Under the pieces are notes generated by a model. The model was not told the origin of the DNA. It was given only the letters and a program-made list of their open reading frames with translations, and ran no database searches. The translations under genes and the position numbers were made by a program. Shown piece by piece: positions 8,680 to 62,962 of a stretch of 64,000 nt of DNA. The DNA is from a virus. Lineage: Duplodnaviria; Heunggongvirae; Uroviricota; Caudoviricetes. The stretch is from IMG/VR virus record IMGVR_UViG_3300028591_000077; one strand, written 5' to 3'. How positions within the stretch are numbered: position 1 is the first letter of the stretch; every line of letters begins with the position of its first letter.

Positions 8680-8683
8680 TAGT

Positions 8684-30296: not shown

Positions 30297-30890
30297 ATGG
30301 GAAACTTAGCAAAACACTTAAAAGTAGTTCATAATCATAGAAAATATGTAAGAAGAATGTGTTGGAAAATGGGTTTATTCTGGCAAGGATTAACCCATGA
30401 TCTATCTAAATATTCTATTACAGAGTTAAAAATCGCAAAATATTATGGTGGAGACAGAAGCCCACATGCTGTTTGTAGAGATAAAATTGGCTATAGCCCA
30501 AGTTGGCAACATCATTATCATATAAACAAGCACCATTGGCAATTTTGGCTTGATATGGAAGATTGGCCAGATAAGGTTATTCCAGTAAAGATGCCATATA
30601 AATATGTTGTAGAAATGCTTTGTGACATGGCTGGTGCAAGTAAGGCTTATAATCCTAAAAATTGGGAACCAAAAATGCTTTGGGATTATTGGGAACAAAA
30701 ATGTAAAGGCAAACGCCTTATGCATAAAGACTCAGAATATTTAATTGAAAAGCTTCTTTGGAATTATTATCAATATGGGGAAAAGAAGTTCCTTAAATGG
30801 TATAAAGATTCGAAAAAATATCTAAAGAAAAATTATGAAGATGGCATATTGCCTAAAGAAGCATCTTTAACAGATATTGTTAAAAATTAA
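30297..30890 (+). CDS. His-rich putative metal-dependent (HD-like) protein, paralog 1 of 3
   Basis: HDLSK ... HHYHINKHHW motifs shared with 52064 and 60171 ORFs. Confidence 0.45.
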   Translation: MGNLAKHLKVVHNHRKYVRRMCWKMGLFWQGLTHDLSKYSITELKIAKYYGGDRSPHAVCRDKIGYSPSWQHHYHINKHHWQFWLDMEDWPDKVIPVKMPYKYVVEMLCDMAGASKAYNPKNWEPKMLWDYWEQKCKGKRLMHKDSEYLIEKLLWNYYQYGEKKFLKWYKDSKKYLKKNYEDGILPKEASLTDIVKN

Positions 30891-31127: not shown

Positions 31128-31282
31128 TTTTTAAGAACAGAGCGTAAACTCTGTTTTATTTTTTGCAAAATTTTTGAAAACAGCGCAAAACTATCGTATA
31201 ATATTATAGAATTGTGCAATAAATATATAAAAAAGTTATAAGCACATTAAAATTTAAACTACATATGAAAGGAGTAAAAATT

Positions 31283-32782
31283 ATGTGGTGGATTTGGGTA
31301 ATTGTAGGCGTTGTTGCCGCTTTATTGATTGCTGCATTTATCGCAGCTGCTTACACAAAAGCTGGACCAGATGAAGCGATTCTCATCTCTGGCGCCGGTA
31401 AAAGAAAAATCTTACGTGGAAAGGCTGGTTGGAGAATTCCATTCTTACAAAGAAAAGATAGACTTTCTCTTAAAGCATTCCAAGTAGATATTAAAACTAG
31501 AGAATCAATTCCAACGACCGAATTTATCAACATCATGGTTGACGGTGTTGCAAACTTGAAGATTTCAAGTGATCCAACCCTCTTAGAAAGAGCTTTTGAA
31601 ACCATTCTTGGTATGGGTGAAGATGACCTTATTGAACAAGTTAAGCAAGTTCTTGAAGGTAATATGCGTGAAATCATTGGTACTGTTGGCATTAGACAGT
31701 TAGTTCAAGACCGTAAAGGTGTCGCGGAAGCCGTTAAAGAAAACGTTATTCCAGACATGGAAAAACTTGGATTAGAATTAGTCAACTTCAATATTCAAAA
31801 CTTCTCTGATGACAATAGCGTTATTATTAACTTAGGTATTGATAACGTTGCGCAAATTAAGAAAGATGCATCTATTGCGAAAGCCGTTGCTGAACGTGAC
31901 GTCGCTATCGCTACTGCCGCCGCTGAAGAAGCTGCCAATAAAGCAAAAGTTGAAGCTAACGCTAAAATCCTTCAACAAAACACTGATTTCAGCTTAAAGC
32001 AATCTGAATTAAAACAAGCTACCGATACTGCTAAAGCTCAAGCCGATGCTGCTTATGCGATTGAGGAACAAAAGAGAGCTAGACAAATCAATGAAGCTAA
32101 AGTCGATGCTGAAATCGCCAAGAGAACACGTGAAGTCGAACTTGGAGAACGCGAAGTCGAATTAACAGAAAGAAAACTTACAGCTGAAATTAACAAGAAA
32201 GCTGAAGCTGAAAAATTCGCTGCACAACAAGCCGCTGACGCAGAACTTTACAAGAGAACTAAAGCTGCTGAAGCTCAATTAGCCGAAGCTCAACGTCAAG
32301 CTGAAATGAAGAAAATTGCTGCTGAAGCTGAAAAGATCGCAAAACAAAATGCTGCTGAGGCATTAAAGATTGAAGCTGAAGCCAAGAAGACTGCTGCTAT
32401 CGCAGAAGCTGCTGGTATTGAAGCCAAAGGCGCTGCTGAAGCTGAAGCCATCTTAAAGAAAGCAGAAGCTATGAAACAATATGGCGAAGCTGCTACATTA
32501 CAACTTATCTTAGATAGTGGTGTGTTACCAGAAATCGTCAGAGCTTATGCTGAACCTCAAGCCGCTGCTCTTGGTAAGATTGATTCTATTACAATGTATG
32601 GCGAAGGCAATACTGCTAAACTTACAGAAGAAATCTCTAAGAATGGTATGCAAATCTTCAATGGTCTTGAAAAAGCAACTGGTCTTGACATCAAGTCCTT
32701 GCTTGCTGGGTTCTTAGGTGGCAAGCTTGTCTCTGCTCCTAAGACCGAAGTCACGGAAGTTGCTGATAAACCAAAGAAATAA
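31283..32782 (+). CDS. flotillin-like SPFH/band-7 membrane protein
   Basis: N-terminal TM helix, SPFH core, long Ala/Glu/Lys-rich coiled coil as in FloT/YqiK. Confidence 0.7.
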   Translation: MWWIWVIVGVVAALLIAAFIAAAYTKAGPDEAILISGAGKRKILRGKAGWRIPFLQRKDRLSLKAFQVDIKTRESIPTTEFINIMVDGVANLKISSDPTLLERAFETILGMGEDDLIEQVKQVLEGNMREIIGTVGIRQLVQDRKGVAEAVKENVIPDMEKLGLELVNFNIQNFSDDNSVIINLGIDNVAQIKKDASIAKAVAERDVAIATAAAEEAANKAKVEANAKILQQNTDFSLKQSELKQATDTAKAQADAAYAIEEQKRARQINEAKVDAEIAKRTREVELGEREVELTERKLTAEINKKAEAEKFAAQQAADAELYKRTKAAEAQLAEAQRQAEMKKIAAEAEKIAKQNAAEALKIEAEAKKTAAIAEAAGIEAKGAAEAEAILKKAEAMKQYGEAATLQLILDSGVLPEIVRAYAEPQAAALGKIDSITMYGEGNTAKLTEEISKNGMQIFNGLEKATGLDIKSLLAGFLGGKLVSAPKTEVTEVADKPKK

Positions 32783-33479: not shown

Positions 33480-33932
33480 ATGAAGAAAACTTGTTATAAC
33501 TGTACATATTTTCATGGGTGCTTAAGTGAGGCGGAGCCTTCCCAGTATCATATTCATAACTATTGCGAAAAATTCAATAGGGTTTTAGACAAAGACCTTG
33601 AATCAGAAGTCAATAGTTTTTTAGAAGATAACTGGAATACGATGTGTAAAGCTTGCCCAGAAAATATTGGAGTTAGTGATGACTTTGAAACTGGTGAAGC
33701 ATGCTGCTGGATGTTTAGTGCAGCAGATAATGCTTTTTGGCCAGATGAAAAATACGAAGAAAATAAAAAGCATAATAGAGAATTAGCCATAAAAACTTTA
33801 GAGTATATGTTTAAAGAGCAAGAAGTTTATGATGAATTTGAAAATGCTTTTGTAGCACTTACTGATTATTACAGTGAAACAGAAATAAGTGGTCTTAAAG
33901 ACTTACTGACTAAACTAAAAGAGGAGAATTAA
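33480..33932 (+). CDS. hypothetical Cys-rich protein (150 aa), leaderless
   Basis: ATG directly after cgtataatataat. Confidence 0.5.
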   Translation: MKKTCYNCTYFHGCLSEAEPSQYHIHNYCEKFNRVLDKDLESEVNSFLEDNWNTMCKACPENIGVSDDFETGEACCWMFSAADNAFWPDEKYEENKKHNRELAIKTLEYMFKEQEVYDEFENAFVALTDYYSETEISGLKDLLTKLKEEN

Positions 33933-34966: not shown

Positions 34967-35037
34967 TCAAAGCATGAATATTAAAAAGTCCTCTTAAAGA
35001 GGTCTTTTTTATTGTATAATATAATAGAGGATTATTT

Positions 35038-35246: not shown

Positions 35247-36197
35247 ATGATTAATGATAAATTAGGTGATAGAATGAAAAGATATGAAGCCGTTACCAAA
35301 ACTACCCTAACTAGTAGAATGCCGGTTATTATCAGATTAGATGGCTGTCATTTCCATACGTTCTGTAAGGGATTTAAAAAGCCTTTTGACCCTCTTATGT
35401 CTAAGACTATGCAAGCTACTATGAAGTATCTTTGTGAGAATATTCAAGGCTGTGTTTTAGGTTATACACAAAGCGATGAAATCACTCTTGTTTTAATTGA
35501 CTATAGAAAGCATAATTCATCTGCTTGGTTCGATAATGAGGTTCTTAAAATCACTTCTGTTTCTGCAGCACTTGCGACTTATGCATTCAATAAGTATTTC
35601 AATGAATTCTATCTTGAACAGCTTGCTGAAAAAGGCGAAGCAGACGAATATGATTTAGTCTATGATAGAAAGCGCAGACAAGGTGCTTATTTTGATGCAC
35701 GTCCGTTCAACGTCCCTCGTGAAGACGTTACTAACTGTATTCTTTGGAGACAGTTGGATGCCGAGCGTAATTCTATTAACTCTTTAGCTCAAAGTCTATT
35801 TAGTCACAAAGAACTTCAAGGTTTAAGCCTTAAAGACACTAAAGCTAAAATCGAGACTGAAAAAGGAATCATTTGGGGTGAATTGCCAACTACTCAAAAA
35901 CGTGGCTCATGCTGCGTTAAAGATTATTGGTATACTCTTGATGATGGCCAAATCGTTAAGAATGATTCGCATATCTGCTATAAAGACAAGACCGGTAGAT
36001 TCTACTTTGATAATGACGGATTCTACTTCTTTGCTACTGGTTTAAAGGATAATTTCAATTGTGCTTTCAGTGCGCAAGGCGTTAAGATGGATGTCAAAGA
36101 ACATTCAAGTTGGAGAATCGATGACAATATTCCGCGCTTTGTTGACGATGGTCGTGAATATATTGAAAAATTAATTTACCCAATTGATGAAGAATAA
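35247..36197 (+). CDS. Thg1-like protein (tRNA-His guanylyltransferase family, 3'-5' nucleotidyltransferase)
   Basis: GDRMKRYE, IIRLDGCHFHTF and GYTQSDEITLVL align with Thg1 motifs VVRLDGRNFHRF and AYGQSDEYSFVF. Confidence 0.8.
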   Translation: MINDKLGDRMKRYEAVTKTTLTSRMPVIIRLDGCHFHTFCKGFKKPFDPLMSKTMQATMKYLCENIQGCVLGYTQSDEITLVLIDYRKHNSSAWFDNEVLKITSVSAALATYAFNKYFNEFYLEQLAEKGEADEYDLVYDRKRRQGAYFDARPFNVPREDVTNCILWRQLDAERNSINSLAQSLFSHKELQGLSLKDTKAKIETEKGIIWGELPTTQKRGSCCVKDYWYTLDDGQIVKNDSHICYKDKTGRFYFDNDGFYFFATGLKDNFNCAFSAQGVKMDVKEHSSWRIDDNIPRFVDDGREYIEKLIYPIDEE

Positions 36198-36274
36198 AAA
36201 AATATCGCGTTTTTGCGCGGTATTTTTATTTTAAGCCGTATAATATTATATATTACTTTGGAGGTATACATCTC

Positions 36275-36805
36275 ATGAAAAACACATTAGTTGTTAATCT
36301 ACTCGGTGGTCCAGGAGTTGGAAAATCAACTCTTACCGCTGCTATTTTTGCAAAGTTGAAAGACTTAGACGTCGATTGTGAAATGGCTTCTGAGTTTGCG
36401 AAAGAGCTCGTCTGGGAGCAAAGAAATGAAACGTTCAAGGATGAACTATACATCTTTGCAAAACAAGCCCACAGGCTATTCAGATTGAACGGAAAGGTCG
36501 ATGTAGTCATCACTGACAGACCATTGATTCTTACTTGCTTCTATGCTAAGAATGATAAAGCATTAAGCAAATTCTGTTTAGACCGCTTCGAGCAATATAA
36601 TAACATGAATTATTTACTCATAAGAGAAAAAGCGTACAATACTAATGGTAGAAATCAAACAGAAGATGAAGCAAGATCCATTGACAGAGAGACTAAATAT
36701 CTGCTTGAAAGCTATGATATTCCTTATACGGAACTCCCTGGCAATATGGAAACTGCTGATATCATCGTTAAAGAAGTTTTAGAAAGGTTAAAGGAAATCA
36801 AATAA
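36275..36805 (+). CDS. P-loop kinase-like protein
   Basis: Walker A LGGPGVGKST; adjacent to Thg1-like and RNA ligase genes. Confidence 0.5.
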   Translation: MKNTLVVNLLGGPGVGKSTLTAAIFAKLKDLDVDCEMASEFAKELVWEQRNETFKDELYIFAKQAHRLFRLNGKVDVVITDRPLILTCFYAKNDKALSKFCLDRFEQYNNMNYLLIREKAYNTNGRNQTEDEARSIDRETKYLLESYDIPYTELPGNMETADIIVKEVLERLKEIK

Positions 36806-37992
36806 TGGCACAGGCAGATTATAAAGGTATTAAAATTTACGATAAAGTTATCATAGTTGAAAGAACATCCACGACTGATGGCGGATATAACTGGAGAGGT
36901 CGTACGGTCAATCAAGGATATGTTGTCGATGTTGGCAATAAGAAGATGCTAGAAAATGCCATGAATTGGGCTAGATGGACAAAGCATGATAACTCAATTT
37001 TAGGCGGTAAGTGGTATTGGCACAAAGAAGTCACAGACGCCATGCGAAAAGCGTATGATAATTCAGAAGAGACAGTTGAAGGCGTCGCTCATGAATACGA
37101 AAATGGTAATTTTAGCATTACGCTAGACGAAGCCGCCGGTGGATCTAGTCAAGGTGGTAAGCTATCTTTCTGGAACTGCATTATTACAGGCCCAGATGGC
37201 CACAATTTCTTAGTTGGAATCAATTCAGAACTATTATTGCATTTGATGATGTCAACTACTTTGGTCAAAGGAACTTGCCAAGAAAAGGTTTGGCTTGGTA
37301 GGGTTAAAGGAACCCAGGTTGGCGTATTTACTCCAGATATGGAAGACTTTGCGCAAGCTAAGAAAGATGAGGAAACAAGAAATCGCAAAAAGACTTCTAA
37401 CTATGAGCCAGGCGATATTGTTGAGACCGTAACCACAAAGGAATTATATTTAGGCGAAGTTTATTCTTATGCTAATAGATATGTGGAAAGTGGTAGATAT
37501 GGTTGGTACAATAGGCACAGTTATATTAAAGTTTATAAAAAGCCTAAGAAAATGTATGCGTATATCGATCTTAGCTACGAGTCAAGCGATGGTCATAGTA
37601 TTGAATTAAAGACTACTAAAACGGCTAGAACTGTTGTTGGTAAGAATGTTGAGCTTAAGGATAAAATGCTTGAACTTATTAAAAAATACCCAACAGAATA
37701 TATGAAGCTTAGAGCTTTAGCACATGACTACAAGCGTGACGGAGATACTTATCCATTCTCGCATTTCGTAGAGAACATGGCAATTAGGCTTTCAGATAGA
37801 TATAGTCAAGAAGAAATTAAAGCTGATATGCTACTTGCCATGAGCTATCAGCAAAGCGCAAATCCACAAGCGACCAATGATTGCTATAAAGAAGAAATTA
37901 GGCTTGAAGATAAGCCGGCTGAGGATGAAACCGTAGACAGATACAGCTACTTCCATTACTTCAGTAATTATTCAAAATACTATAAAAAATAG
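36805..37992 (+). CDS. hypothetical protein (395 aa)
   Basis: ORF between kinase and RNA ligase. Confidence 0.55.
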   Translation: MAQADYKGIKIYDKVIIVERTSTTDGGYNWRGRTVNQGYVVDVGNKKMLENAMNWARWTKHDNSILGGKWYWHKEVTDAMRKAYDNSEETVEGVAHEYENGNFSITLDEAAGGSSQGGKLSFWNCIITGPDGHNFLVGINSELLLHLMMSTTLVKGTCQEKVWLGRVKGTQVGVFTPDMEDFAQAKKDEETRNRKKTSNYEPGDIVETVTTKELYLGEVYSYANRYVESGRYGWYNRHSYIKVYKKPKKMYAYIDLSYESSDGHSIELKTTKTARTVVGKNVELKDKMLELIKKYPTEYMKLRALAHDYKRDGDTYPFSHFVENMAIRLSDRYSQEEIKADMLLAMSYQQSANPQATNDCYKEEIRLEDKPAEDETVDRYSYFHYFSNYSKYYKK

Positions 37993-38048
37993 TTTACAAA
38001 CCTCCGAATTTATCGTATAATATTATGGTAGATATCGGAGGTATTTTT

Positions 38049-38978
38049 ATGAATTACAAAGCATATCAACACATTGAAAAAATTGGAAGCGGAGAAGTCG
38101 AAGGAATTCTTAATGGAACCTGCTATCTTTTCTATAAGATTGACGGAACTAATTCTTGCATTTGGCTTAAGGATGATGGAACGTTAGGCTTTGGTTCTAG
38201 AAAAAGAGAGCTTACTACAGGCAAAGATGGCGATAACCAGGGATTTATGACTGCCATCACCACAAATGAGTCCTATAAGGCTGTTTTTGAAGATATTAAG
38301 GCATTTTTGATTAATAATCCTAATTGGATTCTTTATGGCGAATGGTTAGTTCCTGTCAATATCAAGAATTATAAGGATGATGCCTGGAGAAACTTCTACG
38401 TCTTTGATATTTATGATACTGTTGAAGACAAGTATCTCGATTTCGACCGATACAGCAAGCTTTTAGATAAGAAATATCCTAATATCAAATACATTCCTCT
38501 TTTGGCCAAACTTGAGAATCCGACTGAAGAAGATATCAAAGCTCTTCTCCCTAGAACTGGTGAATTCTTAATTAGCGAAGGCCTTGGTGAAGGTATTGTT
38601 ATCAAGAACTACGATTATGTTAATAAGTATGGCCGTAGAACTTGGGCTAAGATGCTTACTGAAGACTTCTTGTCAAAAAAGAAAGGTCTTCGCGAAGGTA
38701 AGAAAATTGCAGCCGAAGAAGGTACTTCTACTGAATATGAAATTGTTAAGCTTCTTACTGTTGAGCATATCGTCAAAGAGAAAACAAAGGTTATGGAAAG
38801 ACGCAATAGCCCAACTTTTGAAATGAACATGGTTGCAGAGCTTTTGAATCGTGTATTCGATGAGTTCTGGAGGGATAACTGGGAAATCATTCTCAAGAAA
38901 TTTCACAACCCAACCATTAACTTCAAGACTTTGAAAGCTCTTTGCAACAATAAAGTAAAGGAAACATTAGGTATTTAA
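38049..38978 (+). CDS. RNA ligase (Rnl2-like nucleotidyltransferase)
   Basis: motif I YKIDGTN (KxDG), motif IV EGIVIKN, motif V WAKM; start set at ATG after ggaggt RBS. Confidence 0.65.
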   Translation: MNYKAYQHIEKIGSGEVEGILNGTCYLFYKIDGTNSCIWLKDDGTLGFGSRKRELTTGKDGDNQGFMTAITTNESYKAVFEDIKAFLINNPNWILYGEWLVPVNIKNYKDDAWRNFYVFDIYDTVEDKYLDFDRYSKLLDKKYPNIKYIPLLAKLENPTEEDIKALLPRTGEFLISEGLGEGIVIKNYDYVNKYGRRTWAKMLTEDFLSKKKGLREGKKIAAEEGTSTEYEIVKLLTVEHIVKEKTKVMERRNSPTFEMNMVAELLNRVFDEFWRDNWEIILKKFHNPTINFKTLKALCNNKVKETLGI

Positions 38979-38979
38979 T

Positions 38980-39285
38980 ATGGATGAAAAAACAATTTTA
39001 TCAGAAATAGCTAGGATCCGTGAGCTTTTACAAAAAAGCGGTAGAACATTTTCTGATGCTTTATTAAAGACTGAAGAAGAACTAGGTGAGCTGATTTCAG
39101 CTCACTTTGGTTTACAGTCTTATAAAAAGAATACGCCAGAAGACTTACAAGAAGAAGTAGTTGACGTTTTACAATGTGCTATTTCTTTATATATTCTTGT
39201 TAATGAAAAATATCCATTTGATTTACTTGAAGTGCTAAAAGCAAAAAATGATAAATGGGAATCTAAATATACAGAGGTAAAGTAG
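38980..39285 (+). CDS. MazG-like nucleotide pyrophosphohydrolase
   Basis: EELGEL and EEVVDVL acidic helix pair typical of all-alpha NTP-PPase. Confidence 0.55.
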   Translation: MDEKTILSEIARIRELLQKSGRTFSDALLKTEEELGELISAHFGLQSYKKNTPEDLQEEVVDVLQCAISLYILVNEKYPFDLLEVLKAKNDKWESKYTEVK

Positions 39286-40175
39286 TGAGAATAATTAACG
39301 CTTTTACTATTCAAAGAATTGGTTTAGATGCCACATCTGGAATTTTAGATTGGCTACTTTCTCCTATTTATATGAAGCAAGCCAGACCAAATGATACTCT
39401 GGTTCTTTATACAAATAATGAAAGTGTAGAGTTATTAGGCGAACTTTGGCAGTATATTAAAAAGCATTATGATGAAGTTAATGTCACGCTTAAAAAGCCA
39501 ATGGGTGGCATATTCAGCATGCCAAAATTTGAAGCTATGGAAAATGAATTGAAAAACCATGGAACGGATTTCATTATGGTAGATAATGATCTTTATGCTT
39601 TTCCTGGTTTCTTAGTGACAGTGCCTGATTTTGGAATCTATTTTAAAGAGCCACATTTATTACCCTGGTATCGTGGCATCGTCGACGGGCACTATGATTT
39701 ATTAAACGCACCAAGTTGGGTTAAATGGAAATCTATTCCAGTTAATTGCGCAATTATTAGATTGAATAATGCAGAATTTTTGAAAGACTATTTTAAGTTG
39801 TTTTATAGAATTACTGCAACTAGACTTCCAAAAAAAATTCTCGAGGTTGCTGTTGTCAAAGAACAGTGGAGCTTAGCAGAGTTGTTTGCGAAGTATAAAA
39901 TAAATCCAGTGGAGATTGAAAAAGAATATACCTCATTTCATAAAGGCAGATTAAAAAATAAACTCAAACCATCACATGTAATTTGTTTACAGGAATATTT
40001 ATTATCCTGGTTAGATGCGCCGGCATTTAAAGCTTATAAACGAAGTAGCTATTATGATATAAATCTACCGCCGTATGATATTAATTGGTGCCTTGAACAG
40101 CTGGACCCACATGAAAAAGTTGGCCTTATGCATCCAATTAAAAAATTAATTAACAATAAAAATGGCATTGATTAG
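39285..40175 (+). CDS. hypothetical protein (296 aa), GTG start
   Basis: ORF; stop/start overlap TAGTG. Confidence 0.5.
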   Translation: MRIINAFTIQRIGLDATSGILDWLLSPIYMKQARPNDTLVLYTNNESVELLGELWQYIKKHYDEVNVTLKKPMGGIFSMPKFEAMENELKNHGTDFIMVDNDLYAFPGFLVTVPDFGIYFKEPHLLPWYRGIVDGHYDLLNAPSWVKWKSIPVNCAIIRLNNAEFLKDYFKLFYRITATRLPKKILEVAVVKEQWSLAELFAKYKINPVEIEKEYTSFHKGRLKNKLKPSHVICLQEYLLSWLDAPAFKAYKRSSYYDINLPPYDINWCLEQLDPHEKVGLMHPIKKLINNKNGID

Positions 40176-40231
40176 CAATGCCTTTTTATTATTTGCTAAA
40201 TTATTTAGAAATATTTTGGCAGGATAATCAT

Positions 40232-42616: not shown

Positions 42617-42630
42617 TTAAGCTCTTTTTT
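42603..42630. terminator. bidirectional terminator
   Basis: perfect palindrome aaaaagagcttaattaagctcttttttt between convergent genes. Confidence 0.7.
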
Positions 42631-44530
42631 AATAGTCTTTCTCAGTCATGTTATTAATGACTTGTTTTACGTTATCTTGCAGACGTTTATTTTCTGGCTC
42701 AAACTGTAATGCTTTATAAGCGCAGCCAAGGCTTTCTAATTTTTGTCCATTATAGTAGTAAGCTAGACATAATAAATCATAGGGTTCATATGACCAAGAA
42801 ATATCGCGTTCTAGCCAAGTATAATGTCGATAACTTTTAGCAAGGCCCTGTTTGATTATATCGATGGCCATTTGATACTGCTTAAGCTCAAGAAAAGTTT
42901 TTGCTAAGTTAAGATACAACTCACGGTATGTAGGCTCAATTTCAATACCTTTAAAATAACTTGCGATTGCTTTGTCATATTGCTTAAGGTCTTGGTAATC
43001 ATCACCAATGAATAAATAACAACTTGCTCTTTCTAATGAGGCTATTTCTTTGTCATAAACAGTCAATACCTTATTTAGCTTTTCGATAGACTTTTCTAAG
43101 AAGCCTCTATAGCGATATTCATGTGCCAAATAAATTAATCCATACATATCTTCAGGATAATCTTTTTCCCTAAGCTCTAATAAACCTAAATAAGAACCAC
43201 GAGATTTTGTCTTATCTGGATAATGCTGTAATGTTATATCATTGAATAAATATAATGACTTTTCGGCTGGATAATTTTCTGTATGTTCTGTTTTATGCCA
43301 TAATAACTCGTGGACAGGGTAACGCCATTCCCAGTTTTTATCATGGATTTTATTGTAGTTGAATATACGACCTGGCTCACCGTTGTCTAAATGCGACCAA
43401 ACATATTTATAGGTTGCTCTTGTATGAACTCCTGGAATCCATTTTTCACGAAGTGGCTTTGCCCAACCTGCGTCTAATAATTCATCTAAATCGGTGCAAA
43501 TATAAATTTCTGTATCTTCTGGCACTAACTTTAGAGATTCGTTTCTTGCGACATCGAATCTCCAAGGCGTAATTACTTTTTGGGCAACTCTAAATTGAGC
43601 TGGATACTGTTTTTGATATTCTAATAATTTTTCATAAGTGCCATCTGTTGAGCCAGTATCTAATACACAAATATAATTTGCTTCTGACATAGATTTTACC
43701 CAAGCGTCTACGAATTTTAATTCATTTTTACAAATTGCATAAACTGCTATTTTCTTTTCTGCTGACATTTTATATAACTCCCATTGTTTATCTATTCAAG
43801 CGCCATTCCATCCTAATTTTCTACTTACTTCTGGCGGAGTGGCTTGGTATATTTGTTTAGCTAGCTGCATATATTTTCAAGCTTCAGTATAGTTGTGCAA
43901 AAGATAGTTTTGATATGCTAGCATAATATATATTCCGCCGCTATCTTCTGGATATAGCTCACAGCGTTTTTCAAGTAGCTGATTATATCATTGTCACTTT
44001 GTTGAATTATTGTCTTCATAATGCTCAACATATATTGGAATATTTGGACAATCTACATTTATACCGGTATTTATATCACCTAATGTTTCATGAACTGGAT
44101 AATACCATTTTGTTTTTCCGTTATTTCTGAAAATACGAAGCATTGGCACATATTGGCCGACATAATTCTTAGTAACATCTCTGCGATAAAAATTAAAAAT
44201 ATTAATTTTTGGGTCAAGATTCATTAATGCTTGTCGCCAATTTACCATGATACGCTCATCTAAATCCACACAAATTATAATATCAGTATCCGCAGGCACG
44301 AGCTCAATTGCTTTATTACGTGCTTCATCAAAATAAAAAGGCGTAAATATCTGTTGTTTAATAAAAAACTTATTTGGAGATTTTTGATTTAATTCCTGTA
44401 ATTTTTCTCATGTGCCATCTGTAGATCCAGTATCTAAAACAGTGATATAGTCGGCGTCTGAAAAATTAGCCACTCATTCATTTATGTTGGCAATTTCATC
44501 TTTACAAATAGCATTAATGCAAATTTTCAT
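42629..44530 (-). CDS. tandem-duplicated family-2 glycosyltransferase with C-terminal TPR repeats (about 630 aa; possible frameshift at extreme 5' end)
   Basis: two VLDTGSTDGT[YW]EKL GT2 cores (second W is TGA); no TAA/TAG between track ORFs 43994..44299 and 42629..43768; ATG at 44530 is out of frame by 1 nt in an A4T4 run. Confidence 0.55.
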
Positions 44531-44606: not shown

Positions 44607-45071
44607 ATGAACATTATTAAGTACCCAGACGAAAGGCTTAGAGAAATTTCCAACAAAGTCAGTCTCCCGCTTTCTGCAAAAGACAGAGCAACTTTAGATG
44701 AAATGTATTCATGGCTAAAAGATAATAGCGATGCTGCCGTTGGCTTATCAGCTATTCAAATTGGCATTGCAAAAAGAATGTGTGTCATTAGAATTAAAGA
44801 CGAAAAGACCATTGGTTACAAGCTGGTTAATCCGAAGATTATTAAGCACTCTAATAGACAAATATTTATGTCAGAAGGATGCTTGTCTGTGTTAGAAGAT
44901 CATGAAGAGGCCATCCCAAGATGGGAATCTGTTGTGGTAATGGCTTATGATGCCATCTCAAATAAAAATATTGTAGTTGAAGCGACTGGCTTTCTAGCGA
45001 GAGTTTTTCAGCATGAAATTGATCATATGGATGGCAAACTTTATATTGATTATATTAAGGAGGAAATGTAA
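44607..45071 (+). CDS. def: peptide deformylase
   Basis: GLSAIQIG, EGCLS and QHEIDH match PDF motifs 1-3; leaderless ATG right after ttgtataatat. Confidence 0.85.
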   Translation: MNIIKYPDERLREISNKVSLPLSAKDRATLDEMYSWLKDNSDAAVGLSAIQIGIAKRMCVIRIKDEKTIGYKLVNPKIIKHSNRQIFMSEGCLSVLEDHEEAIPRWESVVVMAYDAISNKNIVVEATGFLARVFQHEIDHMDGKLYIDYIKEEM

Positions 45072-45487
45072 TGATTGATAAATTCGATGAAGAATATAGT
45101 TTTTTAAGTAATTATTATCCATGTAAAGTTGTTTATAATGGTTATACATTTTTAAGTTCAGAAGCTGCATATCAATCTCAGAAAGACCCAAGCCGCGTGG
45201 AAGAATTCATTAATTTAGAAGCGGATGATTCAAAACACTTGGCCAGAAAAGTTAACATTAGGCCAGATTGGGAAGAAGTTAAATTACCAATTATGGAAGA
45301 AATTGTTAGAGCTAAATTTGAGCAAAATAAAGACCTTGCTGAAAAATTAATTGCAACAGGCGATGAAGAACTTGTTGAGGGTAATTATTGGCGCGATTGT
45401 TTCTGGGGTGTCTGCAATGGTCAAGGTGAAAATCATTTAGGCAAAATACTTATGCAGATAAGAGCTGAACTTGGTGGTAATAAATAA
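45071..45487 (+). CDS. NADAR (YbiA-like, DUF1768) domain protein
   Basis: FLSNYY, SEAAYQSQK, RAKFEQN..L...L.ATG...LVE, WG...G.G.N.LG align with E. coli YbiA. Confidence 0.75.
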   Translation: MIDKFDEEYSFLSNYYPCKVVYNGYTFLSSEAAYQSQKDPSRVEEFINLEADDSKHLARKVNIRPDWEEVKLPIMEEIVRAKFEQNKDLAEKLIATGDEELVEGNYWRDCFWGVCNGQGENHLGKILMQIRAELGGNK

Positions 45488-45769: not shown

Positions 45770-47107
45770 ATGTTGTCAAAATTTAGTCAATTTGTCAATG
45801 AGATTTTAGCTGATAATTCAAGATTGGCTAAAATTGCTGTTTTAGAAAAATATAAGGATGATGAATCCGTTAGGTATTTTTTACAGTTTGTTTATGACCC
45901 ATATGTTACAACCGGATTATCCGATAAGAAATTAAATAAAGATGTCGAGATCTTTAGCTATAGCTTATTTGATGCCGACGGTAATTTTAATGAAGATTGT
46001 GATACTATTTTTCAGCTTGACTGCTCAGAGGATGAGGATAAGGCAATCTTTGAATATATTAAAGAACATAATACCGGTAGGGATAGTGATATTAGAACTG
46101 TTCAGAATTTCAAGAAAAGTCATTTTAATAAATGCCCCGAAATGCTTGATTTGTTTGATAGAATAATTACTAAGAATCTTCAATTAGGTATTGATGCGAA
46201 AACTATTAATAAAGTTATTCCAGGTCTTATTCCTGAATTTAATGTTATGCTTGCAAATAAATATTTCGATAAACCAGAAGTTATTGATGGTAGAGAGTTT
46301 GTTATCACAACAAAAATTGATGGTTCAAGAATTATCGCAATGAAGGATAATGGCCAAGTTAGTTTTTGGACTCGTCAAGGACAAAAATACGAAGGCCTTA
46401 TTGACTTAGAAGAAGCTCTTAAAAATATTAGTGAAGATAATTTTGTACTAGATGGCGAAATCGTTGCCATGAATACAGATAAAGAAGACACTTATAAAAA
46501 TACCATGAAGCTTAGTAGAACAAAAGAGCAAGCTAAGCATGGTCTTAAAATGTTAGTCTTCGATTATATGCCAATTGCTAATTTCAAGCTTCAGTGTTGC
46601 CCAATGACTTATAGTGCAAGAAGAAGTACTTTATCTGCAATATTTGACCTTAATGGACAACATCTTGCACCTTATTTTGAATTATTGCCAATGCTTTATA
46701 GAGGCACAGATACTAATAAAATAATCGAACTTTTAAACGAGCAAACAGCCAAAGGTGAAGAAGGAATCATGATTAACATCTGTGATGCCCCTTATGATTT
46801 CAAAAGAAGCAACAATCTTCTTAAAGTAAAGAAATTCCAGGATACTGAAGTTAAGATTGTTGGATATGAAGAAGGTGTTAATAAATTAGCTGGAACATTG
46901 GGCGCATTTATATGCGAATATAAAGATAATATTGTGCGTGTAGGCTCCGGATTAAGCGATGAAGATAGAGCTTATTTCTGGGCTAATCAAGATAAATATC
47001 TAAATAAATATATCACGGTCAAATATTTTGAAGAAAGCTATGATTCTAAGACAAATCTTCCTTCATTAAGATTCCCAATTTATATGAGGGTTAGAGAAGA
47101 CATTTAA
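45770..47107 (+). CDS. ATP-dependent DNA ligase
   Basis: motif I KIDGSR, motif III LDGEIVAM, motif IV EGIMINI, motif V LLKVKKF. Confidence 0.75.
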   Translation: MLSKFSQFVNEILADNSRLAKIAVLEKYKDDESVRYFLQFVYDPYVTTGLSDKKLNKDVEIFSYSLFDADGNFNEDCDTIFQLDCSEDEDKAIFEYIKEHNTGRDSDIRTVQNFKKSHFNKCPEMLDLFDRIITKNLQLGIDAKTINKVIPGLIPEFNVMLANKYFDKPEVIDGREFVITTKIDGSRIIAMKDNGQVSFWTRQGQKYEGLIDLEEALKNISEDNFVLDGEIVAMNTDKEDTYKNTMKLSRTKEQAKHGLKMLVFDYMPIANFKLQCCPMTYSARRSTLSAIFDLNGQHLAPYFELLPMLYRGTDTNKIIELLNEQTAKGEEGIMINICDAPYDFKRSNNLLKVKKFQDTEVKIVGYEEGVNKLAGTLGAFICEYKDNIVRVGSGLSDEDRAYFWANQDKYLNKYITVKYFEESYDSKTNLPSLRFPIYMRVREDI

Positions 47108-48258: not shown

Positions 48259-49683
48259 ATGTTTGTTAAAAAAGTAGAATTTAATTGGACAGATACAAAT
48301 CTATTAAGTAGCTTACTTGGCCTATTTAATGCTTTTAAGCACGCAGATAAAGAATTATATCTTGTTGGCGGTTGCGTTCGAGATTTACTTCTAGGCAAAA
48401 CTCCAAAAGATTATGATTTATGCACAAACGCCACCCCTGATGAAGTTAAGGCTATTTGTGAAAAGACCGAATTAAAGACTTTTGATTCCGGTATTAAGCA
48501 TGGAACATTAACTGTTATTGATGATTTATATCATCAAAGCTTTGAGATTACAACCTACCGTATCGATGGAAAATATTCAGACGGTCGTCATCCTGATGAA
48601 GTTGTTTTTACTCCTTCATTAGAAGAAGACTTAAAACGTCGCGACTTCACAATCAACTCTTTCGCTTATGCTTTATCAAAACAAGAATTAATTGCTTTAG
48701 ATGAGTCTTATTTCAAAGACTTAGAATATGGCATTATTCGAACTGTTGGAAATCCAGAAGAAAGATTTAAAGAAGATGCTTTGAGAATGCTTAGAGCGTT
48801 CAGATTCATGGCGCAACTTAATTTCAGCCTTGATGCCAATACATTTAATGCTATTAAGGCTTTAAATTCACTTCTTGTAAATGTTTCTAAGGAAAGAATT
48901 AGAGATGAGCTTACAAAGATTGTTATGAGCGATAATCCACAAGTTTTAGAGCTTATTGTTATTGCTAAGCTAGAGATATATATTTTTGATGGTAAAACTC
49001 CATTAACAGATTGCGTCAATTGCCAACATGATAATCCATGGCATTATACTGACGTATTTCATCACACAATGGATGTCATTAAAAGAGTGCCTAAAAAGTT
49101 TGAGCTAAGATGGGCTGCATTGTTCCATGATTTTGGAAAACCAGCAACAAAGCAACTAAAAGAGGGAACTACAAATCATTACAATTATCACGGCCATCCA
49201 GACGTTTCTGCTGAAATGGCCCTGGTTTTGATGGATATTTTGAAGTTTTCAAATGACCAAAAAGACTTAATTTATAAGTTTGTTAAATATCATGATACTG
49301 ATTTAGTGTCTTGCAGAAATGCAACGTTCAAAAATGTTCTTGTTGAGATTGGTGTTGAACATTTTCCTGACTTTATTAAATTAAAGCTAGCAGACGCAAT
49401 GGCACATCAAATCACAAAAGATACAAAGTGGGCTATCGATGCAATTAGCAAACTTTATGAAAGATTTGATAAAACAGTCGTCGAATCACAAGCCTTGACA
49501 GTTAAGGATTTAGCAATCAACGGTTATGATATAATCAATGATGGATTTTTACAAGGTAAAGAAATCGGCGATTGCCTAAGATGGATGCTTGATATCGTGT
49601 TAGAGCACCCAGAATATAACACACGAGAAAAATTGCTTGAGCTTCTTCAAACGTTCAAGGAGATGTCTTTTCAGGCAAGCTAA
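48259..49683 (+). CDS. cca: CCA-adding tRNA nucleotidyltransferase with HD domain
   Basis: LVGGCVRDLLLGKTPKDYDL pol-beta head motif; downstream HD motifs HHTMDV / FHDFGKP. Confidence 0.8.
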   Translation: MFVKKVEFNWTDTNLLSSLLGLFNAFKHADKELYLVGGCVRDLLLGKTPKDYDLCTNATPDEVKAICEKTELKTFDSGIKHGTLTVIDDLYHQSFEITTYRIDGKYSDGRHPDEVVFTPSLEEDLKRRDFTINSFAYALSKQELIALDESYFKDLEYGIIRTVGNPEERFKEDALRMLRAFRFMAQLNFSLDANTFNAIKALNSLLVNVSKERIRDELTKIVMSDNPQVLELIVIAKLEIYIFDGKTPLTDCVNCQHDNPWHYTDVFHHTMDVIKRVPKKFELRWAALFHDFGKPATKQLKEGTTNHYNYHGHPDVSAEMALVLMDILKFSNDQKDLIYKFVKYHDTDLVSCRNATFKNVLVEIGVEHFPDFIKLKLADAMAHQITKDTKWAIDAISKLYERFDKTVVESQALTVKDLAINGYDIINDGFLQGKEIGDCLRWMLDIVLEHPEYNTREKLLELLQTFKEMSFQAS

Positions 49684-49695
49684 GAGGACAAAACA

Positions 49696-50256
49696 ATGAA
49701 AGTGATATTCTTAGACATAGATGGCGTTATGAATGACGAGCTCGCATACAGGGCTTGGAAGGAAAACCCAGACAAAGAGACCTTTGAAGATTCTGACGTT
49801 CCTACGGATCAGCATATGGCTCAATTAAAGAGAATTGTTGATGCGACTGGCGCGGAGATTGTTTTGTCCTCAGCCTGGAGATGCTCTATTTGGGGCATGA
49901 GGACTGTTCTGGAGCGCCTTAATGACTATGGCTTAAAGTTATTAAGCGTTACTGATGAAGGTGTCCCAGAATCAGTTTTAGACGCCTCTGGCTTTGGTGA
50001 TTTAGAACCAAGAAGTGTGTCTAAGCGTTCTTGGGACGGTTCCAACACCATGATTGTTAATGATCGTGGTGCAGAAATTGCCGGTTGGATGCTAAGACAA
50101 AAGAATAAAGGAGTCAATATTGAATCATTCGTTATCTTAGATGATGAGGATGTCGATATTGTTCAATACTATCCGAAAAATCTTATCAAAACAAGCTATA
50201 TGGCTGGCTTGACTGATGAAGATGTTGAAAAATGTATCAGTATACTAAATAATTAA
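49696..50256 (+). CDS. HAD-superfamily phosphatase (paralog A)
   Basis: FLDIDGVMN motif I, VLSSAWR; paralogous to 55165 ORF. Confidence 0.55.
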   Translation: MKVIFLDIDGVMNDELAYRAWKENPDKETFEDSDVPTDQHMAQLKRIVDATGAEIVLSSAWRCSIWGMRTVLERLNDYGLKLLSVTDEGVPESVLDASGFGDLEPRSVSKRSWDGSNTMIVNDRGAEIAGWMLRQKNKGVNIESFVILDDEDVDIVQYYPKNLIKTSYMAGLTDEDVEKCISILNN

Positions 50257-55164: not shown

Positions 55165-55809
55165 ATGTGCATTATATTTTTAGATATAGATGGTGTATTA
55201 AATGCTGCTAATGATTTTGGTGGTCGTAAAAAGCCAAATCCAATTGTAACGTCAGATTCTGGCATTAGGTATTGTGGCATTAGCAAAACAAAAGCTAAAG
55301 AGCTTAAGTGGATAGTCGATAAAACTGACGCCAAAATTGTTTTAGTATCTTCTTGGAAAAGTGATTATGCAGAATATTTAAGAAATAAAACGAATAAAAC
55401 AGGCAAATATCTGTATAATAAGCTTAGAAAAGTTGGCTTATCAATTTATGACCATACTAACGATTTAGCCGTTGGTTTTCATTCTCATCGCGGGCACGAG
55501 ATAGTTACTTGGCTTGCTAACCAACCTGAGCCAATAGATGCTTGGGTAGTGCTCGATGATGAAGTATTCAGCGACTACGGCGATAGTATTAAGCAAAATC
55601 TTATTTTAACCTCTGAACATGATGGTTTAACACATGAGCTGGCAAAGCTTGCTGCATGCAAACTATTGGGACTTCCCGAGGGTTCATTCGATACTGAGTT
55701 TGAAAAGCTAGCAAAAGAGATGACTGCAGCGGCAATTCCAGCAGTTGAAGAAAAAGAACTGGTTATTATTAAACCAAATGGTCCTGCAAAACAAATAAAC
55801 AATAAATAA
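55165..55809 (+). CDS. HAD-superfamily phosphatase (paralog B)
   Basis: FLDIDGVLN, VLVSSWK. Confidence 0.55.
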   Translation: MCIIFLDIDGVLNAANDFGGRKKPNPIVTSDSGIRYCGISKTKAKELKWIVDKTDAKIVLVSSWKSDYAEYLRNKTNKTGKYLYNKLRKVGLSIYDHTNDLAVGFHSHRGHEIVTWLANQPEPIDAWVVLDDEVFSDYGDSIKQNLILTSEHDGLTHELAKLAACKLLGLPEGSFDTEFEKLAKEMTAAAIPAVEEKELVIIKPNGPAKQINNK

Positions 55810-60682: not shown

Positions 60683-62962
60683 ATGAGAACATTATTGATA
60701 TTAAGAGGAGCCCCAGGTGCTGGCAAATCAACTTGGGTAGAAAATATGGGATTAAAGAGCTATACTCTTTGTCCAGATGACATCCGTGTCTTGTGCGCTT
60801 CACGCGATTTACAAGCCGATGGTTCTTTTGCTATTGCTAGAAATCATAATGTCGAACAAGAAACCTGGAAAATCATTTTAGACCTTTTAGAATATAGAAT
60901 GTCTCGTGGCGAATTAACTGTTTTAGATGCAACAGCTTCTAAAACAAAAGATATTTTACAATACCGTGAATTAGCTGAACAATACCGTTATAGAATGTAT
61001 TGTGTTGATTTTACAGATGTTCCTATTGAAGTATGCAAAGCGCAAAATCTACAAAGACCTGAAGACAAAATTGTTCCAGAATCTGGCATTGATAACATTT
61101 ATGCACGTTTTGCTACACAACCTGTTCCTTCTCGTGTGGAAGTCATCAAACCAGATGAAGTTGAAAAGATTTTAGAAAAACCAATGGATTTATCTACTTA
61201 TAGAAAGGTAGTCTTTATTGGTGATATTCATGGTTGTTACGATACTTTAATGCAATATCCAGATTTTAAAGATGGATTAAAAGATGATGTTGAATACATC
61301 TTTTTAGGTGACTATATTGACCGTGGAAATCAAAACGCTGAAGTTATGAACTGGTTATATTCTATCATGAACAGACCAAACGTTTGTTTATTAGAAGGGA
61401 ACCATGAAAAATATTTAAGAGACTATGGAGCTTCTGTTCCTGCAAAGTCTTCTGAATTTGAAGATAAAACAAAACCACAGTTAATCGCTGGCGGTTTTGA
61501 TGAAAAGAAAGCCAGAATGTTTTATCGTAAAGTTCGCCAAATGTCACACTTTACTTGGAACGGCCTTGAAGTATTAGCCTGCCATGGCGGAATTCCATGC
61601 ATGCGCGCAAACCTTACTTATATTCCTACATGTGCGTTTATCAATGGTGTCGGTGAATATAAAGACTATCAAGTTATTGCCGATACTTGGATGAAAGAAA
61701 CTAAAGAAAACCAATATTTAGTTCACGGTCATAGAAACACTGCGCAAGACCCAGTTCAATTGGCTGATAGAGTTTTTAACTTAGAAGGCGAAGTTGAATA
61801 TGGTGGAAAATTACGTATTGTTGAATTAGAAACTAAAGGTCAATATCCAGAGTATGGTGTCACTGAAAATGGCGACAGAATCCCAGTTGGATTTAATACT
61901 TTATTTAATTGGAATGTTGTTGAATTAGACGACTGCCAACCTGTTACTGAGGAGACACAAACAGAACAACGTAGAGTCGATACTGTTGAGCAAGCAGTCG
62001 ATTATTTAAGAAACAATAAGTTCGTCAAAGAAAAGAAATTAGGTAATGGTATCTCATCTTTTAACTTTACTCGTGAAGCTTTCTATTCTGCTAACTGGAC
62101 AAGACAAACAGTCTTAGCTCGCGGATTATTTATTGATACAGATAATAATAAGATTATGGCGCGTTCATATGAGAAGTTCTTCCGTATTAATGAAGTTCGC
62201 GAAACTGAAATGATTGCTTTAAAGAACAGACTACAATTCCCAGTCAAAGCTTATATCAAAGAAAATGGTTTCTTAGGAATCGTTTCTTATAACTACAAAA
62301 CTGATGATTTATTTATCGCTACAAAGTCATCTGATAAGGGTGATTGCGCGGATTATTTCACAGCAATGCTTGAACCTTATAGAGCAAAAATCCTATTTAC
62401 ATTAAAGACATATTATGAAGCTGGAAATCCAATTTCATTAGTCTTCGAATGTGTTGATCAAGAACATGACCCACATATTATTAGATATGATTCAAGCAAA
62501 GTAATTTTACTTGATGGCGTCAAAAACACTCTTACTTATGACACAATTTCATATACTGAGCTAAAAGCTTGTGCACTTGGAATTGGTTGTGCTGTTAAAG
62601 AGTTGGCTTATACTATCAAAGATTGGGATGAATTCAGAACCTTGGTTATGGCTGCTGATGATGAAGACTATAAATATCAAGGAAGATATATTGAAGGATA
62701 TGTCTTCGTAGACTCTTCAGGATTCATGACTAAGCTAAAAACTGGTTATTATAATTTCTGGAAGTTCATGAGGGGCGTCGCTGACGCGACACTTCGCTGT
62801 GGATACTACCGTAGACTTGGCGCGCTAAATACTGCTGCCGCAAATCAATTCTATGGATTCTGCAAAAAGTGCTTCAATGAAGACAGAATTGTAGAAACAA
62901 AGAGTTACCCATATAAAACAGACATTATTTCATTAAGAGAAAAATTCATCGGAGGTAAATAA
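60683..62962 (+). CDS. pnkp: polynucleotide kinase-phosphatase (bacterial Pnkp-like: P-loop kinase + calcineurin-type phosphoesterase + C-terminal ligase-like domain)
   Basis: Walker A GAPGAGKST; GDIHGC / GDYIDRG / GNHE metallophosphatase triad; C-terminal KENGFLG (KxNG lysine motif). Confidence 0.7.
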   Translation: MRTLLILRGAPGAGKSTWVENMGLKSYTLCPDDIRVLCASRDLQADGSFAIARNHNVEQETWKIILDLLEYRMSRGELTVLDATASKTKDILQYRELAEQYRYRMYCVDFTDVPIEVCKAQNLQRPEDKIVPESGIDNIYARFATQPVPSRVEVIKPDEVEKILEKPMDLSTYRKVVFIGDIHGCYDTLMQYPDFKDGLKDDVEYIFLGDYIDRGNQNAEVMNWLYSIMNRPNVCLLEGNHEKYLRDYGASVPAKSSEFEDKTKPQLIAGGFDEKKARMFYRKVRQMSHFTWNGLEVLACHGGIPCMRANLTYIPTCAFINGVGEYKDYQVIADTWMKETKENQYLVHGHRNTAQDPVQLADRVFNLEGEVEYGGKLRIVELETKGQYPEYGVTENGDRIPVGFNTLFNWNVVELDDCQPVTEETQTEQRRVDTVEQAVDYLRNNKFVKEKKLGNGISSFNFTREAFYSANWTRQTVLARGLFIDTDNNKIMARSYEKFFRINEVRETEMIALKNRLQFPVKAYIKENGFLGIVSYNYKTDDLFIATKSSDKGDCADYFTAMLEPYRAKILFTLKTYYEAGNPISLVFECVDQEHDPHIIRYDSSKVILLDGVKNTLTYDTISYTELKACALGIGCAVKELAYTIKDWDEFRTLVMAADDEDYKYQGRYIEGYVFVDSSGFMTKLKTGYYNFWKFMRGVADATLRCGYYRRLGALNTAAANQFYGFCKKCFNEDRIVETKSYPYKTDIISLREKFIGGK

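Follow-up and report, generated by a model that had tools for sequence, protein, structure and literature searches.

The five genes between positions 35247 and 39285 of the 64,000-nucleotide stretch analyzed here (hereafter the window; IMG/VR record IMGVR_UViG_3300028591_000077) are a shuffled stretch of the known phage RNA-repair gene set and not a new fixed repair machine. We put at roughly 65% the probability that they form a mosaic piece of an accessory region, divided into three predicted cassettes, in which a Thg1-like protein (TLP) and an RNA ligase contribute to a dispersed tRNA-repair repertoire and do not act as parts of one machine. The stretch would belong to the accessory-gene region of an uncultured phage of ~239 kb, and the repertoire would serve to mend tRNAs that host tRNA-targeting defenses have cut or trimmed. 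An earlier sequence-only reading had proposed a contiguous tRNA/RNA-repair module consisting of a Thg1-like polymerase, a P-loop kinase, a 395-aa protein, an Rnl2-like ligase and MazG. The five plus-strand ORFs all lie where it placed them, and their motifs and the TLP, ligase and MazG families are as it described, whereas the polynucleotide kinase (Pnk) role and the single repair module found little support.

Gene order is not conserved. No relative examined carries all five genes, and in relatives at 65-83% identity the ligase-MazG pair is missing at this position. The combination is absent from loci L057, L058, L011 and L014-L019: L014-L017, whose Thg1 proteins are 65-75% identical, and L019, whose ligase is 65% identical, lack the other cluster genes; L057, whose 395-aa protein is 83% identical, shows the arrangement kinase-Thg1-395aa with neither ligase nor MazG; and L058 and L011 retain only the kinase and the 395-aa gene. 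This last pair alone recurs across relatives, with Thg1 doing so less often. Since adjacency of the TLP, kinase and 395-aa genes is found in three permutations (the window, L057 and L025/L156), functional coupling may nonetheless exceed a purely mosaic reading.

From a recurrent promoter-like motif and hairpins, three transcription units are predicted in the cluster, namely orf65-Thg1, kinase-395aa and ligase-MazG-orf296, the promoters and terminators being consensus-level predictions only. The motif, yGTATAATATwAT, occurs more often than chance predicts (25 matches, 6.1 expected); 14 of its 17 plus-strand copies are intergenic, 11-172 nt 5' of a gene, and copies are often preceded by a hairpin and a T-run. 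The plus-strand copy TGTATAATATAAT (35013..35025), which has a hairpin and T-run ahead of it, is the predicted start of the first unit, and two exact copies on the same strand, CGTATAATATTAT at 36237..36249 and again at 38014..38026, are predicted to start the second and third. Downstream of the former come GGAGG and then ATG, and the latter also reads TTTACA-17-TATAAT, with agreement at 11 of 12 positions. A terminator-like hairpin lies immediately 3' of the Thg1 stop codon (36198..36227, plus strand; 13-bp stem, -15.4 kcal/mol, z=-4.4, equally stable shuffles 0/200), followed by a T-rich tract, and a further terminator-like site is found at 40164-40182.

The first predicted cassette would pair orf65 with a 316-aa protein of the bacterial TLP type (35247..36197, plus strand). 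This protein matches Thg1 PF04446 over profile positions 2-130 of 130 (E=9e-30, 103.7 bits against a cut-off of 29.2) and phrog_4717 (5e-82), and its translation contains the hallmark motifs IIRLDGCHFHTF and GYTQSDE. Its best solved relative is the Bacillus thuringiensis enzyme BtTLP (4kgk, E=3e-58), compared with 5e-7 for human THG1 and 6e-5 for Candida Thg1. The sequence points to the bacterial/archaeal TLP clade and not to the eukaryotic Thg1 enzymes that add G-1 to tRNA-His; by homology, the protein is predicted to be a templated 3'-5' nucleotidyltransferase that would rebuild the missing nucleotides of truncated tRNA 5' ends. Compared with BtTLP (PDB 4kgk/4kgm; PMC3701042), the catalytic core is collinear and RxDG and QSDE are kept, the phage IIRLDG and QSDEIT aligning at the metal-binding carboxylates with RIDG and QSDEIS of 4kgk, but the phage protein has two insertions, at about residues 125-146 and 230-285. 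Phage relatives L016 and L017, which are 75% identical, lack the second of these. Elsewhere, Thg1-like genes occur in variable RNA-repair islands, as in L014 (Rnl1, kinase-HD, RlaP, Thg1, CCA) and L018 (Thg1, metallophosphatase, kinase-HD).

The third predicted cassette would combine an Rnl2-type ligase, a MazG pyrophosphohydrolase and the 296-aa product of orf296, the last gene of its unit. The ORF at 38025..38978 (plus strand, 317 aa) matches RNA_ligase PF09414 (2e-21, 77.2 bits, cut-off 27) and, over its full length, phrog_548 (6e-40), whereas its match to DNA_ligase_A_M (4e-4, 20.6 bits) is under the cut-off of 26.2; a true DNA ligase, which has an OB domain, is encoded elsewhere, at 45770-47107. 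The translation contains YKIDGTN and GEGIVIK and keeps the motif set I (KxDG), III, IIIa, IV (EGxxxK) and V, and K38/D40/G41, G105-E106, F124...D128, E189-G190...K194 and K209 do not vary among six family members, the most divergent of which is 24% identical. KxDG and EGxVxK are retained, the assignment as an ATP-dependent RNA ligase, probably of the Rnl2 type, holds, and by homology the enzyme would seal nicks (3'-OH/5'-PO4) in duplex RNA. In a search of the PDB with a six-sequence profile, T4 Rnl2 (2hvq, 1s68), which has the same motif set, was the sole solved ligase aligning over both the nucleotidyltransferase (NTase) and C-terminal domains (profile 21-296, Rnl2 27-327 in 2hvq), although the relationship is very distant (E=1.5e-5) and, taken by itself, the NTase domain finds higher-scoring matches in Naegleria Rnl5 and Pyrococcus Rnl3; NgrRnl and Pab1020 match the profile in the NTase domain only. 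Because all relatives start at Met9 (38049), with GGAGG 8 nt upstream, this is most likely the true start, and not 38025. The nearest phage relatives are the ligase of Cellulophaga phi19:3 and Herelleviridae 'RNA ligases'; the A511 homolog sits among tRNAs, RtcB and phosphoesterases, in an RNA-repair island that contains no member of the 395-aa family. The neighboring 101-aa ORF (38980..39285, plus strand) is a MazG-like nucleotide pyrophosphohydrolase, as first proposed, by a marginal match to PF03819 (1e-4, 22.8 bits against a cut-off of 22) and a match to phrog_1247 (2e-11), and belongs to nucleotide metabolism and not to RNA repair.

Farther downstream on the plus strand, the window encodes a nucleotidyltransferase of the CCA-adding enzyme type, associated with tRNA 3'-end repair, with an HD domain (48259..49683; PolyA_pol 1.6e-35, PolyA_pol_RNAbd, HD, tRNA_NucTran2_2), two stand-alone HAD_SAK_2 phosphatases, the first described as of the RNA 3'-phosphate healing type (49696..50256, PF18143 2.4e-23; 55165..55809, PF18143 3.5e-24), and, 21 kb downstream of the cluster, a 759-aa kinase-metallophosphoesterase-Rnl1 fusion (60683..62962; AAA_33 3.8e-17, Metallophos 1.4e-14, RNA_lig_T4_1 2.1e-32) with full-length homologs in 112 phage records. 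The P-loop of this fusion is of the polynucleotide-kinase type, AAA_33, and residues 3-379 match TIGR04075 (bacterial Pnkp) under its cut-off. With Clostridium thermocellum Pnkp and T4 Pnkp the fusion shares a kinase-metallophosphatase arrangement followed by a ligase domain, but the latter is Rnl1-type and not of the type proper to bacterial Pnkp. The fusion is most plausibly the heal-and-seal enzyme of this genome, and end healing would fall to it and to the HAD phosphatases, not to the cluster kinase; the TLP and the cluster ligase would join these proteins and the CCA-adding enzyme in the dispersed repertoire. The window contains no tRNA genes and no Rfam matches, and therefore no evident phage substrate. 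Thymidine kinase, dCMP deaminase, nucleoside deoxyribosyltransferase, NADAR and PARG are also encoded in it.

The second predicted cassette would consist of a small-molecule kinase translationally coupled to the 395-aa protein. The 176-aa product of 36275..36805 (plus strand) is a P-loop kinase, AAA_28/NadR-RNK/thymidylate-kinase-like; it carries the Walker-A motif GGPGVGKST, and its significant Pfam match is AAA_28 (PF13521, 4e-15). The T4-type Pnk role once suggested for it fell away. A profile search of the PDB led to deoxyguanosine, adenylate and UMP-CMP kinases, with no Pnk among the matches; by structure, too, the kinase lies closest to the NadR RNK domain and not to polynucleotide kinases. 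In other phages, the commonest neighbors of the kinase family are dUTPase and ThyX, and an RNA-repair gene lies within two genes of the kinase in only 1 of 37 dereplicated kinase-anchored groups. A polynucleotide 5'-kinase of the T4 Pnk, Clp1 or bacterial Pnkp kind was rejected, as the domain is AAA_28 and not AAA_33 and both structure and gene neighbors disagree. For this protein, nucleosides or (d)NMPs are the most likely substrates, and its homologs are annotated at source as deoxyadenosine/deoxycytidine kinase or nicotinamide riboside kinase.

The 395-aa protein (36805..37992, plus strand), the start of which shares 1 nt with the kinase stop, proved to be as uncharacterized as had been claimed, with no Pfam, PHROG, NCBIfam or credible PADLOC match. 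Across its family, PADLOC/NCBIfam returned only MTase_II, at a non-credible 15 bits in one member, and PHROGs returned only unnamed families for all 67 alignment members. Grouped at 50% identity, this phage-restricted family forms at least 467 clusters, and it was seen in uncultured large phages only; there was no sequence-level match in 50,697 GenBank phage records, and tblastn with three members found no cultured-phage homolog. Foldseek candidates, Listeria P100 Gp62 among others, were discarded, P100 gp62 being without profile similarity and located in a replication region. The structure prediction proposed for this ORF gave a confident, beta-rich model with no solved-fold match and 0 predicted TM segments, and the longest family members contain no Pfam domains and hence offer no domain-fusion clue to function. 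A first impression from single-sequence tblastn (six contigs), that the gene has no repair-gene neighbors, was overturned by profile-based detection across 106 loci. The kinase lies within three genes of the 395-aa gene in 11 of 69 dereplicated groups (OR 31), a strong link; Thg1-like and RlaP genes are linked more weakly, KptA genes are likewise placed non-randomly nearby, and the ligase adjoins the family in 1 of the 69 groups. An obligate pair was rejected when the reciprocal test failed: 0 of 54 kinase-anchored loci carry the 395-aa family, so the link is one-sided and patchy.

Among the alternatives to the mosaic reading, the one that survives best, though we think it unlikely, has the kinase and the 395-aa protein supply dTMP or dNTPs, or salvage nicotinamide riboside, as part of nucleotide or NAD+ metabolism, in an accessory region merely shared with RNA-repair genes. 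The NadR-RNK match, the homolog annotations and the dUTPase and ThyX neighbors of the kinase all favor it, as do MazG and the five further metabolic genes named above and an NMNAT-like HIGH nucleotidyltransferase that adjoins the 395-aa family in L027 and lies nearby in L026; phage nicotinamide-riboside salvage is, moreover, an established counter-defense (NARP3, PMC13464706; gut jumbo phages, PMC11662467). However, the 395-aa protein, soluble and beta-rich, is neither a PnuC-type membrane protein nor a Rossmann-type adenylyltransferase, NMNAT-like neighbors occur in only 2 of the 69 groups, and dUTPase and ThyX are absent from the recurrent neighbors of its family. Quite unlikely, in our judgment, is a two-protein RNA-end repair unit, often accompanied by a TLP, in which the 395-aa protein would, for example, act as a tRNA-binding factor that brings the kinase to 5'-OH ends for TLP extension, or would work in a Tpt1-dependent pathway as a cyclic phosphodiesterase outside the 2H class. 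That the pair forms an unrecognized RNA-end healing step feeding Thg1-like/RlaP enzymes, with the 395-aa protein as a tRNA-binding subunit that makes a 5'-OH tRNA kinase or as a new cyclic phosphodiesterase of the Tpt1 pathway, we regard as very doubtful. One integrated heal-and-seal module on the T4 Pnk/Rnl paradigm, in which 5'-OH RNA is phosphorylated by the kinase and sealed by the ligase, with Thg1 restoring 5' ends and the 395-aa protein as an extra part, is highly improbable. In its favor, the genes are co-directional and tightly packed, the TLP and ligase identities are confirmed, and the 5'-phosphate that TLP chemistry requires under the established Thg1/TLP mechanism (PMC4820378) would give a kinase partner a biochemical rationale.

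Host defenses that cleave tRNAs are widespread, and phage counter-measures have been catalogued only in part. In the mosaic reading, the window is a clear, confirmatory example of how richly an uncultured jumbo phage of gut or rumen type can be equipped for repair, with predicted functions for rebuilding 5' ends and 3'-CCA ends, for healing, and for sealing by two types of ligase. The useful new lead of the locus, a moderately interesting one, is the 395-aa family: should it turn out to act in the repair of RNA ends, a pathway whose parts list is regarded as largely complete would gain a member; should it not, the case would show adjacency in phage accessory regions to be weak evidence for a shared pathway.

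Compared with known systems, the cluster kinase is of another class altogether than the Pnkp healing enzymes. NARP3 couples a PnuC-like transporter with a bifunctional NMNAT+RNK NadR-like enzyme (PMC13464706), and its NadR-related kinase activity recalls the structural match of the cluster kinase to the NadR RNK domain, but the cluster kinase is a lone 176-aa domain whose partner has no TM segments; the NARP3 NAD+ reconstitution pathway itself was rejected, with no PnuC or NMNAT match among the window ORFs scanned. The closest precedent is provided by the RNA-repair repertoires of jumbo phages (Iyer, Anantharaman, Krishnan, Burroughs, Aravind 2021, Viruses 13:63, PMC7824862). In the portion of that survey available to us, neither the local gene order of this locus nor the 395-aa family and its AAA_28 kinase linkage is described. 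The same portion lists Rnl1/Rnl2 ligases, polynucleotide kinase, calcineurin-like and SAK-HAD phosphatases, CCA-adding enzyme and, sporadically, Thg1, and interprets them as counter-measures against host tRNA-cleaving immunity; RlaP excepted, the whole of that parts list is present in the window.

The five co-directional ORFs of the cluster, all on the + strand, lie exactly where the sequence-only reading had placed them, and the motifs it quoted are present in the translations. We read this stretch, with a probability of about 0.65, as a mosaic accessory region in which the Thg1-like protein (TLP) and the Rnl2-type ligase would be part of a dispersed tRNA-repair repertoire, nucleotide metabolism would account for the kinase and MazG genes, and the 395-aa protein would be an uncharacterised factor linked to the kinase. 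Enzymatic activities are throughout those predicted by homology. The window derives from a large uncultured phage, since a 238,828-bp contig encodes an identical 395-aa protein and the phage-type genes present include tail-fibre-like, thymidine kinase and dCMP deaminase genes. The related contigs were found in IMG/VR as well as in metagenomes and MAG bins of gut or rumen type; no near-identical DNA was found among 50,697 phage records, and no tRNA genes or Rfam matches were found in the window.

The Thg1 identity of the first gene (35247-36197) was confirmed by Pfam and PHROGs profiles (PF04446, E=9e-30; phrog_4717, 5e-82) and by its best solved relative, the Bacillus thuringiensis TLP (BtTLP; PDB 4kgk, E=3e-58; human Thg1, 5e-7), with whose active site the RxDG and QSDE motifs align; judged by sequence, the gene product belongs with the bacterial TLPs. 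It differs from BtTLP by two insertions, one of ~22 aa (residues 125-146) and one of ~55 aa near the C-terminus (residues about 226-282). The latter is missing in BtTLP and in two comparison loci with TLPs 75% identical to that of the window (L016, L017), and is present in three others (L014, L015, L057). As 164 GenBank phage records carry Thg1-like genes, the phage TLP is in itself not new. Such genes are often located in RNA-repair islands, whose composition is fluid, as in L014 (Rnl1, kinase-HD, RlaP, Thg1, CCA) and L018 (Thg1, metallophosphatase, kinase-HD).

The proposed RNA ligase (38025-38978) likewise held up, matching PF09414 (2e-21) and, over its full length, phrog_548 (6e-40), with a DNA-ligase domain scoring under its Pfam threshold. 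In the family alignment, nucleotidyltransferase motifs I, III, IIIa, IV and V show no change even at 24% identity. A profile built from that alignment finds Naegleria Rnl5 and Pyrococcus Rnl3 through their nucleotidyltransferase domains; T4 Rnl2 alone aligns over both domains (profile 21-296, Rnl2 27-327, E=1.5e-5), so that the label 'Rnl2-like' is reasonable, though distant. Homologues are known from Herelleviridae and Cellulophaga phages, and that of Listeria phage A511 lies amid a tRNA array, RtcB and phosphoesterases.

The arrangement of the cluster was examined through its predicted transcription signals. The motif yGTATAATATwAT occurs 25 times in the window against 6.1 expected, and 14 of its 17 + strand copies are intergenic, 11-172 nt 5' of a gene and often right after a hairpin plus T-run: at 147, 4847, 10093, 18891, 29009, 31195, 33467, 35013 (before orf65 and the Thg1-like gene), 36237 (before the kinase gene), 38014 (before the ligase gene), 44594, 47458, 52942 and 59439. 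No conserved -35 element was evident in association with it. The motif is probably a promoter of the phage, or of host sigma-A type, and probably marks many short terminator-promoter cassettes. Together with a stable hairpin (-15.4 kcal/mol, z=-4.4) that comes after the stop codon of the Thg1-like gene and a terminator-like site 3' of orf296 (40164-40182), these copies delimit three predicted cassettes, orf65-Thg1, kinase-395aa and ligase-MazG-orf296; the kinase stop and 395-aa start overlap by 1 nt.

Comparative loci agree with this three-way split. The other cluster genes are lacking in L014-L017, whose Thg1-like proteins are 65-75% identical, and in L019, whose ligase is 65% identical; L057 (395-aa protein 83% identical) encodes SPFH, kinase, Thg1 and the 395-aa protein in that order, followed by unrelated genes, and L058 and L011 retain the kinase and 395-aa gene alone. 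In the window, 31265-32782 (+) encodes an SPFH/Band-7 (flotillin-like) protein of 505 aa that includes a long coiled region rich in Ala, Glu and Lys. Its gene lies directly 5' of kinase-Thg1 or Thg1 in relatives (L057, L015), and the six small ORFs that part it from the cluster here are consistent with cassette insertion.

The 395-aa ORF (36805-37992) has no Pfam or PHROG match. Its family comprises 425 matches in the 90% database and at least 467 among 50% representatives, all unnamed proteins of 160-473 aa without Pfam domains or informative fusions; no member was detectable by tblastn in GenBank phages, and only six MAG contigs carry one (185,579 species' genomes). Grouping at 80% identity reduced 106 pooled loci to 69 groups, whose neighbours we detected by profiles within flanks of only ±10 kb; the groups are phylogenetically non-independent. 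The AAA_28 kinase lay within 3 genes in 11 groups (8 directly adjacent) and at rank 6 or beyond in 1 (OR 31, p 4e-6), compared with 9 and 7 groups for Thg1-like genes (OR 3.6, p 0.012), 6 and 3 for RlaP (OR 5.5, p 0.014), and 29/350 and 43/949 slots for all RNA-repair genes (OR 1.9, p 0.008); the window-type ligase adjoins the family in 1/69 groups. Unbiased nearest-neighbour clustering also ranked the kinase first (10 near vs 1 far, p=2e-7) and added KptA/Tpt1, seen in L129, L130 and L156. In L156 this RNA 2'-phosphotransferase (8632-9189; PF01885, 1e-46) adjoins Thg1-395aa-kinase, implying for those phages a Trl1-style repair route that would leave a 2'-phosphate junction. The trio of Thg1, kinase and 395-aa genes occurs in three permutations (the window, L057, L025/L156). 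Among groups with full flanks, roughly half lack both partner genes within 3 genes. Compared with a kinase-anchored control, the surroundings of the 395-aa family have a fivefold higher density of repair genes (39/786 vs 10/1024, p=2e-7). The suggestion that the 395-aa protein is a candidate repair component is reasonable but unproven.

Many loci carry, just 5' of the 395-aa family member, 1-3 tandem copies of ~130-aa proteins with a Cys-rich N-terminus and no Pfam match (L034 8231-9375, L044 7910-9618, L043, L045, L047, L029), located within 2 genes in 6 groups vs farther in 2 (p=5e-4); the window ORF at 33480-33932 has a similar CxxC start, yet clusters apart. A DUF5662 gene (30297-30890, +) lies no more than a few kb from the 395-aa gene, as in the otherwise different L005, L007, L009 and L013; this could reflect either synteny within a lineage or one more association.

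In the most novel view, which we consider unlikely, the kinase would join the 395-aa protein in a new unit that heals RNA ends for TLP and RlaP. The default role of the kinase is nucleotide metabolism. The kinase gene (36275-36805) matches AAA_28 PF13521 (4e-15) and phrog_2107, 'thymidylate kinase'; sequence profiles match deoxyguanosine, adenylate and UMP-CMP kinases, with Pnk absent from the matches, and homologues are named deoxyadenosine/deoxycytidine kinase or nicotinamide riboside kinase. Its commonest direct neighbours in 54 kinase-anchored viral loci are dUTPase (9) and ThyX (4), an RNA-repair gene lies within 2 genes in only 1/37 dereplicated groups, and the 395-aa family is near in 0/54. 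The claim that this 176-aa protein is a polynucleotide kinase after the T4 paradigm is contradicted by these profiles, names and neighbours. MazG (38980-39285), barely over the Pfam cut-off (phrog_1247, 2e-11), would by default also serve nucleotide metabolism.

Elsewhere in the window, a NADAR-domain protein (45071-45487, +), whose domain recurs near the 395-aa family in further loci, and a microbial-type PARG (54131-54976, +) both reverse ADP-ribosylation, which suggests counter-defence against ADP-ribosylating host systems. Directly 5' of the NADAR gene is a phage-encoded peptide deformylase (44607-45071, +; PF01327, 1.5e-38). Large tail-fibre-like proteins with CBM5/12 modules (23353-27573, +) include a highly repetitive GTNIKTINNxSxLGSG-type segment (26944-27573). 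A small ORF and a gene for a glycosyltransferase-2 plus TPR protein make up the sole sizeable minus-strand block (42629-44299). GC and AT skew dip only once in the window, at this block, suggesting an inserted or inverted cassette.

The dispersed repertoire itself includes a CCA-adding enzyme with an HD domain (48259-49683, +) directly upstream of a stand-alone 'Swiss-army-knife' HAD phosphatase gene (HAD_SAK_2; 49696-50256, +), whose stand-alone paralogue lies 5 kb downstream (55165-55809, +). At 60683-62962 (+) a 759-aa protein fuses an AAA_33 P-loop kinase, a calcineurin-type metallophosphoesterase and a T4 Rnl1-type RNA ligase; the fusion is common, with full-length homologues in 112 GenBank phage records, mostly labelled 'hypothetical' or 'RNA ligase'. 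This fusion is the far more plausible enzyme for healing and sealing cleaved tRNA than the cluster kinase. Residues 3-379 match bacterial Pnkp (TIGR04075, score under the model cut-off), and the domain order is Pnkp-like, but the ligase domain is Rnl1. The interpretation given by the sequence-only reading finds partial support: its Thg1 and ligase calls stand, but its contiguous, possibly undescribed module gives way to three predicted cassettes, to relatives without the combination and to a known parts list, which Iyer et al. 2021 (PMC7824862) report for jumbo phages and in which Thg1 appears sporadically.
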